Source: an uncultured Lachnospiraceae bacterium
GTDB taxonomy: Bacteria; Bacillota; Clostridia; Lachnospirales; Lachnospiraceae
Direction: 5' to 3'
Length of the DNA: 55,359 bases
Assembly (NCBI GenBank): GCA_902767335.1
Contig: CACXHD010000126.1
Coordinates: 1 to 55,359, forward strand
The stretch's first letter is position 1. Every line of letters begins with the position of its first letter. The position numbers and the translations under genes were made by a program. This document shows positions 9,447 through 55,359 of this stretch, piece by piece. The notes beneath the pieces are model-generated. The model was not told the DNA's origin and ran no database searches. It was given only the letters and a program-made list of their open reading frames with translations.

Positions 9447-10457
9447 ATGTCTGAAATCGGAGTGCTGGGAGCCGGCACCTGGGGAATGGCTCTTGCCCGA
9501 ATGCTTTGCAACAGTGGTCATGGCGTGATGGTCTGGTCTGCTCTTGAGCGGGAGATCGACGAATATTCTTCCACGCGCAGACATCCGAACCTGCCCGGGA
9601 TGGTGATCCCGGACGGGGTCCGGTTTACGAAAGAGATCCGGGAGGCCGTGACGGATAAGGATATTGTTTTGTTCGCGGTTCCGTCCGTCTTTGTGCGCAG
9701 CACGGCAGCCAAAGCCGCTGCGTTTATCCCGGAAGGACAGATCATCGTGGACGTGGCCAAGGGCATTGAGCCGGATACGCTGTATACGCTCACGGAGGTC
9801 ATTGCGGACGAGCTGCGCAGAAACGGCAGGGGCGGAAACGTCCGTCTGGTCGCGCTGTCCGGACCGACCCATGCGGAGGAGGTTGCAAGGGACATGCCCA
9901 CGACGATCGTCTCCGCGGGAGAGGACATGCGGGCTGCCCGCTTTGTGCAGGATGTGTTTATGAATACCTGCATGCGGGTTTACACCAATCCGGACGTCAA
10001 GGGCGTAGAGCTCTGCGGAGCGCTTAAGAACATTATCGCGCTTGCCGCCGGGATGGCCCGGGGCCTCGGCTACGGGGACAACACCAAAGCGGCACTGATT
10101 ACCAGAGGGATGGCGGAGATTACCCGCCTCGGACTGGCGATGGGCTGCCAGGAGACGACCTTTTACGGACTGGCCGGCATCGGCGATCTGGTCGTGACCG
10201 CGACCAGCGTGCACAGCCGCAATAACCGGGCCGGCGAACTGATCGGACAGGGGATGAGCCCGGAGGAAGCCGTGAAAAAAGTTGGAATGGTCGTGGAAGG
10301 CATCAACGCCCTTCCGGCAGCCATGGAGATGGCAGATGCCTGCCTTGTCCAGATGCCGATTGTCAGCGGCGTGAACCGCATCATCCGGGAAGGCGCAGAT
10401 CCGAACAAGGTGGTACGGGAACTGATGGAGCGGGAGAAAAAACCGGAGAGGTATTGA
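9447..10457 (+). CDS. gpsA: NAD(P)H-dependent glycerol-3-phosphate dehydrogenase
   Basis: N-terminal GAGTWGMALA dinucleotide fold, GPTHAEEV, GALKNIIALAAG and NRAGELIGQG motifs. Length is 336 aa. Confidence 0.9.
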   Translation: MSEIGVLGAGTWGMALARMLCNSGHGVMVWSALEREIDEYSSTRRHPNLPGMVIPDGVRFTKEIREAVTDKDIVLFAVPSVFVRSTAAKAAAFIPEGQIIVDVAKGIEPDTLYTLTEVIADELRRNGRGGNVRLVALSGPTHAEEVARDMPTTIVSAGEDMRAARFVQDVFMNTCMRVYTNPDVKGVELCGALKNIIALAAGMARGLGYGDNTKAALITRGMAEITRLGLAMGCQETTFYGLAGIGDLVVTATSVHSRNNRAGELIGQGMSPEEAVKKVGMVVEGINALPAAMEMADACLVQMPIVSGVNRIIREGADPNKVVRELMEREKKPERY

Positions 10458-10463
10458 GCGTGT

Positions 10464-10558
10464 GAGACAGGGGACGGTTCTGGGGAGACAGGGGGAGACA
10501 GGGGACGGTTCTGGGGAGACAGGGGACGGTTCTGTGTCTCCGAACCGTCCCCTGTCTC
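10464..10558. repeat. array of 4 hairpin-family units (3 direct, 1 inverted) after gpsA
   Basis: GAGACAGGGGACGGTTCTG occurs at 10464, 10495 and 10515, with an inverted copy at 10541-10558. There is an orphan left arm GGAGACAG at 10484. The segments 10514-10531 and 10542-10559 form a perfect 18-bp stem. Confidence 0.9.
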
Positions 10559-10602
10559 CCCACCCTGTCTCCTCTCTGGCTCAATCTGACACACACTGCC
10601 TC

Positions 10603-41710: not shown

Positions 41711-41740
41711 GTGAGTCAGGGGACGTATCTTCTGACCCAC
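41711..41740 (+). repeat. hairpin-family unit, GTGAGT subfamily
   Basis: GTGAGTCAGGGGACGTATCTTCTGACCCAC. It begins the second 116-bp tandem unit. Confidence 0.85.
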
Positions 41741-42246: not shown

Positions 42247-42276
42247 GTGAGTCAGGGGACGTATCTTCTGACTCAC
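42247..42276 (+). repeat. hairpin-family unit, GTGAGT subfamily, before SGNH gene
   Basis: GTGAGTCAGGGGACGTATCTTCTGACTCAC, a perfect 9-bp stem. Confidence 0.9.
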
Positions 42277-53707: not shown

Positions 53708-53753
53708 CAATCAGGGGACGGTTCTCTGCAATCAGGGGACGGTTCCCTGATTG
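53708..53753 (+). repeat. two tandem hairpin-family units, CAAT subfamily, after GH13 gene
   Basis: CAATCAGGGGACGGTTCTCTG followed by CAATCAGGGGACGGTTCCCTGATTG. Confidence 0.9.
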
Positions 53754-53784
53754 GCCTTGCAAATCTGCTGATCAGGTCGGACAG

Positions 53785-54855
53785 TTATTCCACACTGAGA
53801 AACACCTGACGCCGGACAAATTCACGAAACCTGGGAAGTGCAAATCTCAGCGTCCCATAAGAAGGAGAGATAATCAATCCTTTTCTGATCAGTCTTGAGC
53901 GATAGGTAGTAAAACTGTTGGATGGCATACCGATCAGACTTCTTATGTTCTCCACTTTTCCGGAAGAAGCACTGCTCATGGCTGTAAGGACTGCCTGATC
54001 CTTCGGCGATAGTTCACTCCAGATTTTTTCATAGACGTAATCTTCCAGATATGTATCATATAAAGGCAACAGATCCTGCCATTTTTCTTTTTTTACCCAG
54101 CACAGATAGCCTAGTACCTGAAAGGCGAAGGGATATCCCATGGTGGCTCCGGCCATGGATAACGCTTCATCGGTGGTCAGGCCAAAAATATCCTGGTATT
54201 TTTTCATGATCAGGGGGATGCTCAGAGGTTTCATTTCTATTTTGGGAGCTCGATACAGGAAGGTGAGTGTCTTTTCGTTTTGCAGTTCATAAATGTTTTC
54301 ATAAAGGCCTGTCATGAGCAGGAAAACTTGTAGATTCTCCCGCAGAAAAATCTGAAACTGGCTGGCAAACTCACGCATACCAGGAGTGGATGATACCTCG
54401 TCAACCGTAACAAGAACACGCTTTCCGCTTCGAGTCAGTTTTTCCAGCATCCTTCGCAATGCGACAATCAGATCAGTGACAGGAGGTTCACCATCGATTT
54501 CCAGACCGAAGCCGAGAACAGACAGATTGATTTTTGCGTCGCGAAACAGCTGAAGGAGTTCTTTTCGGTTGCTCAGTTCAGCAGTCAGTGTGTGCAGAAG
54601 ATCCCGCTCAGGATTCAAATCGATGACGATCCAGTTTGTATTTGAACGCAGCTGATTTGCAATGTTGGTTAGCGCCACTGTTTTTCCCGATCCTCTCACA
54701 CCTGTAATCATGCATACCTGATAAGCAGGGTTATCAGATTCAAAGCTTTGAAGAATTTCATTATTCTGATAGTCTCGTTCGATAAGGCTCAGAGGTTCTT
54801 TCCCAAAAGAGAGAGAAAAGGGATTCGTCAGATTGCTGCAGTTATCCGTTTTCAC
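53785..54855 (-). CDS. AAA/Arch_ATPase-like ATP-binding protein with C-terminal winged-helix domain
   Basis: Walker A GVRGSGKT and Walker B VLVTVDEV. The C-terminus SPKDQAVLTAMS..FTTYRSRLIRKGLI resembles a wHTH. GTG start. Confidence 0.7.
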   Translation of the reverse strand: MKTDNCSNLTNPFSLSFGKEPLSLIERDYQNNEILQSFESDNPAYQVCMITGVRGSGKTVALTNIANQLRSNTNWIVIDLNPERDLLHTLTAELSNRKELLQLFRDAKINLSVLGFGLEIDGEPPVTDLIVALRRMLEKLTRSGKRVLVTVDEVSSTPGMREFASQFQIFLRENLQVFLLMTGLYENIYELQNEKTLTFLYRAPKIEMKPLSIPLIMKKYQDIFGLTTDEALSMAGATMGYPFAFQVLGYLCWVKKEKWQDLLPLYDTYLEDYVYEKIWSELSPKDQAVLTAMSSASSGKVENIRSLIGMPSNSFTTYRSRLIRKGLIISPSYGTLRFALPRFREFVRRQVFLSVE

Positions 54856-54916
54856 AACCTATATTTCCTTTCACAACTTTTCACAAACATTATACTGCTT
54901 CACAACTTTTCACAAC
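54851..54916 (-). promoter_or_regulatory. five TTGTGAA direct repeats around the ATPase-wHTH gene promoter
   Basis: The plus strand carries TTCACAA(C/A) at 54851, 54870, 54880, 54899 and 54909. Two pairs are spaced 10 bp apart. A minus-strand TATAAT lies at 54894-54889. Confidence 0.5.
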
Positions 54917-54963
54917 TTTATATTTATCATAATCCTGATGAGAAAACAGGTCAAGTTCTTTTC

Positions 54964-55007
54964 TCAATCAGGTCAATCAGTCAATCAGGGGACGGTTCTC
55001 TGATTGA
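54964..55007 (+). repeat. hairpin-family unit, CAAT subfamily, with triplicated left arm
   Basis: TCAATCAG occurs three times (54964, 54973, 54981), then GGGACGGTTCT-CTGATTGA. It lies 83 bp upstream of the Y1 transposase relic. Confidence 0.9.
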
Positions 55008-55089
55008 AAAATTGTTCTGGTTGATTGAGACACAACACATATTGACTTTAAAAATCCCTAATGCTATACTTGCCATGAGGTGATGAACT

Positions 55090-55209
55090 ATGCCAAGGGC
55101 TGCAAGAATTCATTCTGACAGTGGGATATACCATGTGATGCTTCGAGGAATCAATCAGCAGCAGATATTTGAGGATAAGGAAGATAATATCTATAAGGAT
55201 CAATAAAGC
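55090..55209 (+). pseudogene. 39-codon N-terminal relic of an IS200/IS605-RAYT-type Y1 transposase
   Basis: MPRAARIHSDSGIYHVMLRGINQQQIFEDKEDNIYKDQ-stop matches the characteristic N-terminus of COG1943/Y1_Tnp proteins (PRxxR..GIYHVMxRGN..IFxDxED). The catalytic HUH/Tyr part is missing. The ORF is below the track length cutoff. Confidence 0.6.
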
Positions 55210-55234
55210 CCGATAGAACGGGCATTTACGGGAG

Positions 55235-55266
55235 CATGGACTGAAATGTAAGTCCATGTTTTTTTA
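55235..55266 (+). terminator. intrinsic terminator
   Basis: CATGGACT-gaaatgta-AGTCCATG followed by T8. Confidence 0.65.
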
Positions 55267-55359
55267 TATAGAATGATTCAGACGCCAAAAGTATTTGCAG
55301 AGGCGTCATCTGCGAGTAACTATTGACCATGATCCTTGACAACTGAATACAGTTCACGA

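Follow-up and report, generated by a model that had tools for sequence, protein, structure and literature searches.

Hairpins and a Y1 gene relic at the right-hand end of the window

The right-hand end of contig CACXHD010000126.1 (assembly GCA_902767335.1), from an uncultured Lachnospiraceae bacterium, carries copies of a short hairpin resembling repetitive extragenic palindromic (REP) sequences and, just beyond the last of them, the start of a gene for a Y1 transposase related to the REP-associated tyrosine transposases (RAYTs). The whole stretch analyzed, 55,359 nt, is referred to here as the window. An earlier note on this DNA had placed two tandem hairpin units at 53708–53753 and one hairpin with a triplicated left arm from 54964, all of the CAAT-arm subfamily, the only one that it saw in this part of the window, on either side of a minus-strand ATPase gene. 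It had also read a short open reading frame (ORF) farther to the right as a Y1 N terminus. All of these hairpins are present, as is the gene that they bracket (53785–54855). The features that concern the hairpins and the Y1 gene are these:

53708–53728, plus strand: partial hairpin unit CAATCAGGGGACGGTTCTCTG, 21 nt, with left arm, core and TCTG but lacking the right arm; the next unit follows in tandem
53729–53753, plus strand: complete solitary REP-like hairpin CAATCAGGGGACGGTTCCCTGATTG, 25 nt, CAATCA-arm subfamily, all 11 positions paired
54964–54981, plus strand: two reiterated left arms, TCAATCAGG and TCAATCAG, 5′ of the complete hairpin
54982–55006, plus strand: complete hairpin CAATCAGGGGACGGTTCTCTGATTG, CAATCA-arm subfamily, flanking the Y1 gene on its 5′ side
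55014–55029, plus strand: degenerate extra right-arm copy GTTCTGGTTGATTGAG, predicted to pair with the distal left arm at 54964
55042–55070, plus strand: promoter-like site, TTGACT, 17 nt and TATACT with a TG extension, 10 of 12 matches
55077–55082, plus strand: GAGGTG, likely ribosome-binding site
55090–55206, plus strand: Y1 (RAYT-like) transposase gene relic MPRAARIHSDSGIYHVMLRGINQQQIFEDKEDNIYKDQ, 38 codons and a stop, starting 83 nt past the hairpin

The three cores between 53708 and 55006 are all on the plus strand and all have CAATCA arms, which in the window are confined to these three; the remaining copies have GAGACA or AAGACA arms. Allowing up to two mismatches, the core CAGGGGACGGTTC occurs 19 times in the window against an expectation of 1.57, a count that none of 100 shuffles matched. 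The 12 copies that are exact or have one mismatch are all intergenic, and each window hairpin lies directly after a stop codon or ahead of a start codon, that at 53729–53753 being between the convergent amylase and ATPase genes. Folded as single-stranded DNA, the two complete hairpins have energies of –9.1 (53729–53753) and –6.5 kcal/mol, with z-scores of –4.0 and –4.6, the window hairpins overall ranging from –4.0 to –7.0. The partial unit at 53708–53728 can pair with the unit that follows it as a single long hairpin (–16.7 kcal/mol, z –6.7), and a 71-nt fold brings the left arm at 54964 together with the right arm at 55014–55029 (–13.4 kcal/mol, z –4.7), a predicted pairing that may represent a nested or split hairpin. 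The 25-nt unit is an imperfect palindrome in the 20–40-nt range that forms a stem-loop, is extragenic and is repeated, the properties by which REPs are defined. Two related hairpins with a different apex, GGTGAGTCAGGGGACGTATCTTCTGACTCACC, lie at 41717–41729 and 42253–42265 and could constitute a third subfamily, served by an enzyme of its own. Rfam matched no family anywhere in the window.

The identity of the short ORF rests on its homologs, since Pfam is blind to 38 residues alone. When the 69 intact proteins described below were compared with the window by tblastn, every one of them aligned at 55090–55185(–55191), corresponding to residues 1–32(34), and nowhere else; the same search found no second Y1 sequence in the 55 kb. 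Codons 1–32 of the ORF (55090–55185) are therefore homologous to the Y1 genes, and its last six codons and stop come from unrelated sequence. Because the intact proteins align only at these residues, the ORF is a genuine 5′ relic that ends ahead of both catalytic motifs, the HUH histidines H60 and H62 and the conserved Y119. This is in line with the earlier note, which had suggested that the local copy is dead. The relic cannot make an active enzyme, with nothing catalytic kept. What the window copy retains is a hairpin, the promoter-like site, the ribosome-binding site and 32 codons; of the two hairpins that flank an intact gene, the upstream one alone survives. The distance from hairpin to ATG is 101 nt, compared with ~62 nt in intact homologs, and the surplus includes the degenerate right arm at 55014–55029. 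Padded to 40 residues and searched against a database of 5.8 billion proteins, the ORF matched 14 proteins at E values of 9e-10 to 3e-5. All 14 are short N-terminal fragments, and about half end in translated hairpin (QRTVPCV, QGTVPCV, NQGTVL, TGDGSV, QSGDGSVID, QDRGRF). Pfam and Protein Data Bank (PDB) sequence searches with the 38-residue ORF alone gave no match, because it is too short.

DNA homology to the Y1 genes stops at 55188, and two further features lie between that point and the end of the window:

55192–55266, plus strand: unrelated junction segment, 75 nt, with a terminator-like hairpin CATGGACT/AGTCCATG (55235–55258) followed by seven T
55267–55359, plus strand: left end of an IS5/IS1182-like insertion sequence (IS) that runs off the window, placed by comparison with other copies

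The junction segment matches none of the compared loci and nothing else in the window. The left end of the IS is set by its similarity to four other copies, which begins at 55265–55268 and to the left of which all flanks differ; its identity comes from Pfam DUF772 and NCBIfam IS5/IS1182 matches. A contig that extends the window (L002) places the start of the DUF772 transposase 100 nt beyond the window end. The element was followed there, on the reverse complement, to window-equivalent position 55779, where it encodes the transposase N terminus, and 21 related copies occur in metagenome-assembled genomes (MAGs) of Lachnospiraceae and other Clostridia. We considered this IS as the cause of the truncation and rejected it, because it begins at ~55267 and 75 nt of unmatched sequence separate it from the end of the Y1 homology. 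The gene is cut short at a join with unrelated DNA, and the IS was not what cut it.

Intact Y1 genes and the hairpins that flank them

Intact homologs, for which the earlier note had proposed a search, proved abundant. Searching species-representative genomes with a 59-residue N-terminal query yielded 290 relatives, and at E < 1e-10 the family comprises 7500 protein clusters, which their source annotations call "transposase" or, by COG, "REP element-mobilizing transposase RayT." The best 80 of the 290 loci, from 80 assemblies, were examined. They come from MAGs of Acutalibacteraceae, Oscillospiraceae, Candidatus Fimenecus and Ruminococcaceae and include 69 intact genes, all in Oscillospirales MAGs, that encode proteins of 248–258 aa. 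These match Pfam Y1_Tnp (1.6e-15) and carry the hallmarks of Y1/HUH enzymes, with invariant H60 and H62 (GNHIHLL) and Y119 (YIHQNP). The best PDB match by sequence is 4ER8 (TnpA_REP), although a weak one (E 0.3). An AlphaFold model (pLDDT 89.3) again has 4ER8 as its best fold match (E 8e-8, TM 0.77), followed by the IS200, ISDra2 and IS608 transposases (E ~1e-4, TM ~0.6). The C-terminal 28 residues (GLSIRQISRLTGVS...) give consistent, subthreshold Pfam matches to several helix-turn-helix (HTH) families and the model predicts short helices there, suggesting an HTH-like domain.

The intact genes are flanked by inverted copies of the same hairpin core as that in the window, as the earlier note had anticipated. 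Within 110 nt upstream, 66 of the 69 have a plus-strand core GGGGACGGTTC, located 61–86 nt (mostly 62–65 nt) before the ATG, and within 60 nt after the stop codon 50 of the 69 have a core on the minus strand. Since the background is 0.39 cores per kb on both strands, only ~1.5 upstream cores would be expected by chance among 69 genes. In the intact homologs the right arm of the upstream hairpin continues straight into TTGACA, followed ~17 nt on by a TATAAT-like box; the hairpin thus overlaps the −35 element of the gene. The intact unit in Oscillospirales accordingly consists of a plus-strand hairpin, a promoter, the gene for a 248–258-aa protein and the hairpin again in inverted orientation. 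Flanking palindromes that are inverted relative to each other are the defining layout of RAYT genes (PMC2817692). The hairpin at 54982–55006 is the window Y1 gene's own 5′ flanking hairpin.

In an ungapped alignment of a random 144 of 335 distinct hairpins, the apex GGGGACGGTTC is more than 90% conserved and the four outer stem pairs covary; in one of them, 37 sequences have GC, 35 have AU and 31 have CG. Covariation scores 0.295, compared with 0.136 for shuffles, of which 0 of 500 reached it, and with at most 0.136 for slid controls. The stem-flanking columns of the same 144 hairpins are unconserved, and there is therefore no unpaired tetranucleotide of the GTAG kind at the hairpin foot. CGTC is confined to the apex, on the opposite strand, and assignment to the CGTC-tagged REP superfamily (PMC3733652) was rejected, as CGTC lies within the apex and is lacking at the unpaired end.

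The variable stem arms fall into classes that accompany particular C-terminal helices of the protein:

C-terminal helix SYYxVQK: stem arms AATCA, matched by 14 of 15 upstream hairpins
C-terminal helix SKGxVEK: stem arms A/GGACA, matched by 12 of 13 upstream hairpins
C-terminal helix SF/IxxVRK: stem arms xCACA, matched by 23 of 24 upstream hairpins
C-terminal helix GVPKxTxAR: stem arms GGGACA, matched by 2 of 2 upstream hairpins

The same arm class is found upstream and downstream in 45 of 48 genes. This correspondence suggests that the HTH-like C-terminal domain reads the lower stem, in which case the CAATCA hairpins of the window would go with the SYYxVQK lineage and the commoner GAGACA copies would be served by another lineage.

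These features bear on the idea that the hairpins are host elements (terminators, mRNA stabilizers or protein-binding sites) that spread by other means and into which Y1 units insert, the hairpin being the target. The window copies, all of which flank stop or start codons, have a terminator-like placement, and some IS families are known to target REPs. Insertion into a hairpin would, however, leave two half-hairpins, as opposed to the complete inverted pair seen at the fixed positions of about −62 and +10 to +20. Furthermore, the −35 box of the gene is built into the hairpin arm, the arm class covaries with the C-terminal helix of the protein, and no T-run follows the hairpin stem. We regard this explanation as improbable.

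Dispersal of the hairpins and competing explanations

A separate sample, selected solely for the CAATCA hairpin pattern and comprising at least 119 loci and 825 kb, contains, among the matches listed, at least 449 cores, at least 16 near-full Y1 genes and at least 18 gene relics. Hairpin cores outnumber intact genes ~28 to 1, and just 59 of the 449 cores listed are near any Y1 sequence. The relics are both 5′ and 3′, and 5′ fragments of 23–48 codons resemble the relic in the window. The palindrome that flanks the gene is thus also a dispersed, high-copy extragenic repeat, as it is for RAYTs, with the count per genome being an extrapolation; in the abundant Clostridia of gut and rumen it occurs at 0.2–0.5 per kb. 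Inverted pairs of hairpins no more than 200 nt apart run plus then minus in 33 cases and minus then plus in one, which is the polarity found around the gene. Some plus-then-minus pairs enclose conserved noncoding spacers, ~117 nt or 40 nt long, that are found more than once on a contig (L084 12714–12850 and 13521–13657; L076 6849 and 7588; L064, L066 and L069; L006 3103, 3993, 5496 and 6442). These pairs are derivatives similar to miniature inverted-repeat transposable elements (MITEs) or REPINs, and some may keep remnants of Y1 gene ends.

Tandem arrays show a further kind of variation. Directly after a GpsA-like gene (9447–10457) in the window, an array at 10468–10560 is made up of partial units (21, 10 and 21 nt), one full hairpin and one inverted copy. 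The array differs among metagenome contigs of other samples (L110, L111) that encode an identical GpsA-like protein: one version lacks 31 nt, equal to two units, and another has an additional inverted copy. Because the versions differ beside an identical protein, the arrays change at strain level. The left-arm stutter at 54964–54981 has counterparts at 10468–10540 and in related loci. Partial units are always reiterated 5′ of the plus form; if a Y1 gene is present, this is the side away from it.

One competing account is that this is an ordinary autonomous IS of the IS200/IS605 type that moves as a whole, the solitary hairpins and doublets being decayed ends or internal-deletion derivatives. 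Such mobility would fit the presence of two gene copies on one contig (L011, L028 and L045), the 5′ gene fragment that lies directly ahead of a full unit in L084 and the differing genes beside the units at different loci, RHS genes excepted. The many gene relics, both 5′ and 3′, the doublets that apparently retain gene-end remnants and the many contigs of ~1 kb that are just the size of a unit point the same way. Against this, the flanking hairpins are identical and inverted, unlike the two different, same-strand ends of IS200/IS605 elements, the hairpin cores are ~28 times as numerous as the intact genes and have a near-invariant apex, and both the fold and the NCBIfam profile are nearer to TnpA_REP than to IS200/IS608. 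On balance we find a conventional IS an unlikely explanation, although it is the strongest of the three alternatives.

The exception among the neighbors is a giant RHS-repeat protein of ~2100–2300 aa, which is encoded on the same strand directly upstream of the Y1 unit at 22 of the 80 loci (including L009, L026, L034, L049, L054, L055, L066, L068, L083 and L084). Some of these RHS ORFs finish in translated hairpin (...NTGDGSVC in L054 and ...NTGDGSLC in L026). This position and the hairpin-derived ORF ends indicate that Y1/hairpin units gather at the 3′ ends of RHS toxin genes and cut into them.

The gene between the two hairpin sites of the window raises a third alternative, a mobile cassette with the ATPase gene as its cargo and with the hairpins and the Y1 fragment at its borders. 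Its features are as follows:

53785–54855, minus strand: P-loop ATPase gene (AAA_16/STAND-like), 356 aa, Pfam AAA_16 at 5.6e-9
54849–54919, minus strand: ~10-nt direct repeat in five copies, reading GTTGTGAAAA on the gene strand, ahead of the ATPase gene

Of the label "ATPase-wHTH" given to this gene in the earlier note, the ATPase part stands; for the winged-HTH part there is only a weak match to TubZ_C_3 (E 0.006). PADLOC and PDB searches classified the protein no further. The last copy of the GTTGTGAAAA repeat contains the GTG start codon. Four homologs of the ATPase from other MAGs (L085–L088; 72% and 41–43% identity) have repeats in the equivalent place, GTTATGAAAA five times or AATTATGGTGA seven times, so that the layout is kept and the sequence differs. 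The repeats belong to the ATPase gene and are separate from the hairpin system; they resemble an operator or a set of iterons that the ATPase protein itself reads. The cassette explanation can draw on the bracketing of the gene by two CAATCA hairpins, on its position in a patch of 36–48% GC compared with ~55% to the left and on the modest identity, 72%, of its nearest homologs in species-representative genomes. Both bracketing hairpins are plus-oriented, whereas bounded units run plus then minus (33 to 1); the four homologs have no family hairpin nearby and no credible Y1 gene; and the right-hand hairpin is explained as the Y1 gene's own 5′ hairpin. The orientation and the contexts of the homologs led us to reject the ATPase gene as hairpin cargo, and we give the cassette very little credence. 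The gene is a bystander unrelated to the hairpin/Y1 system, its bracketing incidental. The GC content falls from ~55% left of ~53760 to 36–48% in the stretch with the ATPase gene, Y1 relic and IS, which suggests that the low-GC end of the window is a patch of acquired or mobile DNA.

Collectively, these observations make it probable that the region consists of two REP-like hairpin copies and the decayed 5′ end of a hairpin-linked enzyme gene, and that a RAYT-type enzyme family spreads the hairpins. The earlier note had seen a RAYT-type enzyme as the clue to hairpin spread; this proposal is supported, since intact homologs do occur in related genomes and the hairpins flanking them are not unrelated ones. 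By analogy with Escherichia coli TnpA_REP and with IS608 TnpA, whose biochemistry (PMC3333891, PMC3479197) underlies the mechanism proposed here, the enzyme would bind the hairpin while the DNA is single-stranded, its Y1 domain recognizing the invariant apex GGGGACGGTTC and its C-terminal helix the variable lower stem. Tyrosine-mediated cleavage would be followed by rejoining of the DNA or strand transfer, and the outcome would be the spread into intergenic sites of single hairpins, tandem stutters and plus/minus pairs with short cargo. Hairpins and hairpin pairs would be mobilized in trans. Because the hairpin overlaps the −35 box, the enzyme may also regulate its own gene. Any current activity on the window hairpins would require another copy of the gene elsewhere in the genome, and would then come in trans, as the earlier note had suggested.

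Several points weigh against this reading. For the Y1 family, binding, cleavage site and strand would all be taken over by analogy from the characterized enzymes. The whole unit may move as an IS does and not be a fixed, domesticated RAYT, since some contigs have two copies of the gene and, in L084, a copy lies nested within another. The score of the intact homologs against NCBIfam REP_Tyr_transpos, 77.5 bits, is slightly below the cutoff of 80, and the HTH assignment is made up of subthreshold Pfam matches and predicted helices. The missing foot tetranucleotide means that the classical recognition model may not transfer. The strain-level differences between arrays could reflect replication slippage, and among syntenic locus pairs no informative indels were found that would distinguish occupied from empty hairpin sites.

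A more far-reaching interpretation, which we hold to be plausible but somewhat less than evenly supported, is that of a widespread REP/RAYT-type system of gut and rumen Oscillospirales. A Y1–HTH protein would read a bipartite hairpin, the invariant apex through its nuclease and the variable stem through a coevolving helix; the hairpin would double as promoter or operator, plus-then-minus pairs would move short cargo, and units would accumulate at RHS 3′ ends, truncating or swapping toxin tips.

Relation to known systems

REP/RAYT systems have been studied almost wholly in Proteobacteria. "Group 1" RAYT relatives are on record in Clostridia (PMC5581495). In the open-access text examined, REP/RAYT papers name neither Firmicutes nor Clostridia among the bacteria with a REP system, the core sequence gives only chance matches in unrelated papers and RAYT combined with Clostridial taxa gives nothing relevant. 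The system has most of the defining features of REP/RAYT systems, together with several nonclassical ones, and we found no description of it in Clostridia in that text. It may offer a natural specificity code, in which at least three classes of stem each correspond to a particular C-terminal helix; exchanging helices and stems would then show directly how a RAYT selects its REP. There are also practical consequences. Two independent metagenome assemblies (L001 and L003) both end at 54923, in the ATPase upstream repeats and ~40 nt before the hairpin stutter, and many of the Y1-encoding contigs in the protein database are only ~0.9–2 kb. The shared breaks and unit-sized contigs imply that the repeats fragment assemblies, with contigs ending at hairpins; the hairpins also yield spurious ORF tails, such as ...TGDGSV and ...QGTVPC. 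Recognizing them would improve the assembly and annotation of gut and rumen Clostridia MAGs.

Like this system, the IS200/IS605 elements (IS608, ISDra2 and IS200) have a Y1/HUH transposase that carries the HUH motif and a single tyrosine, hairpins in subterminal position that are recognized as single-stranded DNA (here by analogy) and frequent relics and deletion derivatives. They differ in their ends, which lack terminal inverted repeats and bear different subterminal hairpins on one strand, whereas the present units have identical inverted hairpins, of matching arm class in 45 of 48 genes; they differ also in the vast excess here of hairpins over genes and in the structural similarity, which is weaker (E ~1e-4, TM ~0.6) than that to TnpA_REP. 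No tnpB partner turned up beside the Y1 genes, though no systematic check was made. The plus-then-minus hairpin pairs around 20–200 nt of noncoding sequence are reminiscent of MITEs and other palindrome-associated elements; some are repeated within a contig and may retain gene-end remnants. No target-site duplication was identified. Unlike the terminal inverted repeats on which DDE transposases act in MITEs, the termini here are self-folding hairpins tied to a Y1 enzyme.

The closest parallel is with the proteobacterial REP/RAYT systems (REPtrons and REPINs), represented by E. coli TnpA_REP with its REPs and bacterial interspersed mosaic elements (BIMEs) and by the RAYTs and REPINs of Pseudomonas fluorescens (PMC2817692, PMC3333891, PMC3116915). 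In both, a Y1/HUH gene lies between two inverted copies of a short imperfect palindrome; the palindrome is scattered densely between genes, where it stands singly, in tandem clusters or as inverted doublets; and there are several hairpin subfamilies with one gene lineage each. The best fold match of the Y1 protein, 4ER8, belongs to the same group. In E. coli an unpaired GTAG (or similar) at the foot of the REP is required for binding and cleavage, whereas the hairpins described here have no GTAG (or CGTC) tag at the foot and instead combine a conserved apex with a variable lower stem. The present hosts are Bacillota (Oscillospirales), the protein is ~100 aa longer and has an HTH-like C-terminal domain, and the genes are sometimes duplicated or nested, so that they may not be domesticated single copies, whereas a RAYT gene is present once per genome at a fixed locus and is inherited vertically. 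Furthermore, the hairpin holds the −35 box of the gene, and its apex, far from being species-specific, is common to several bacterial families.

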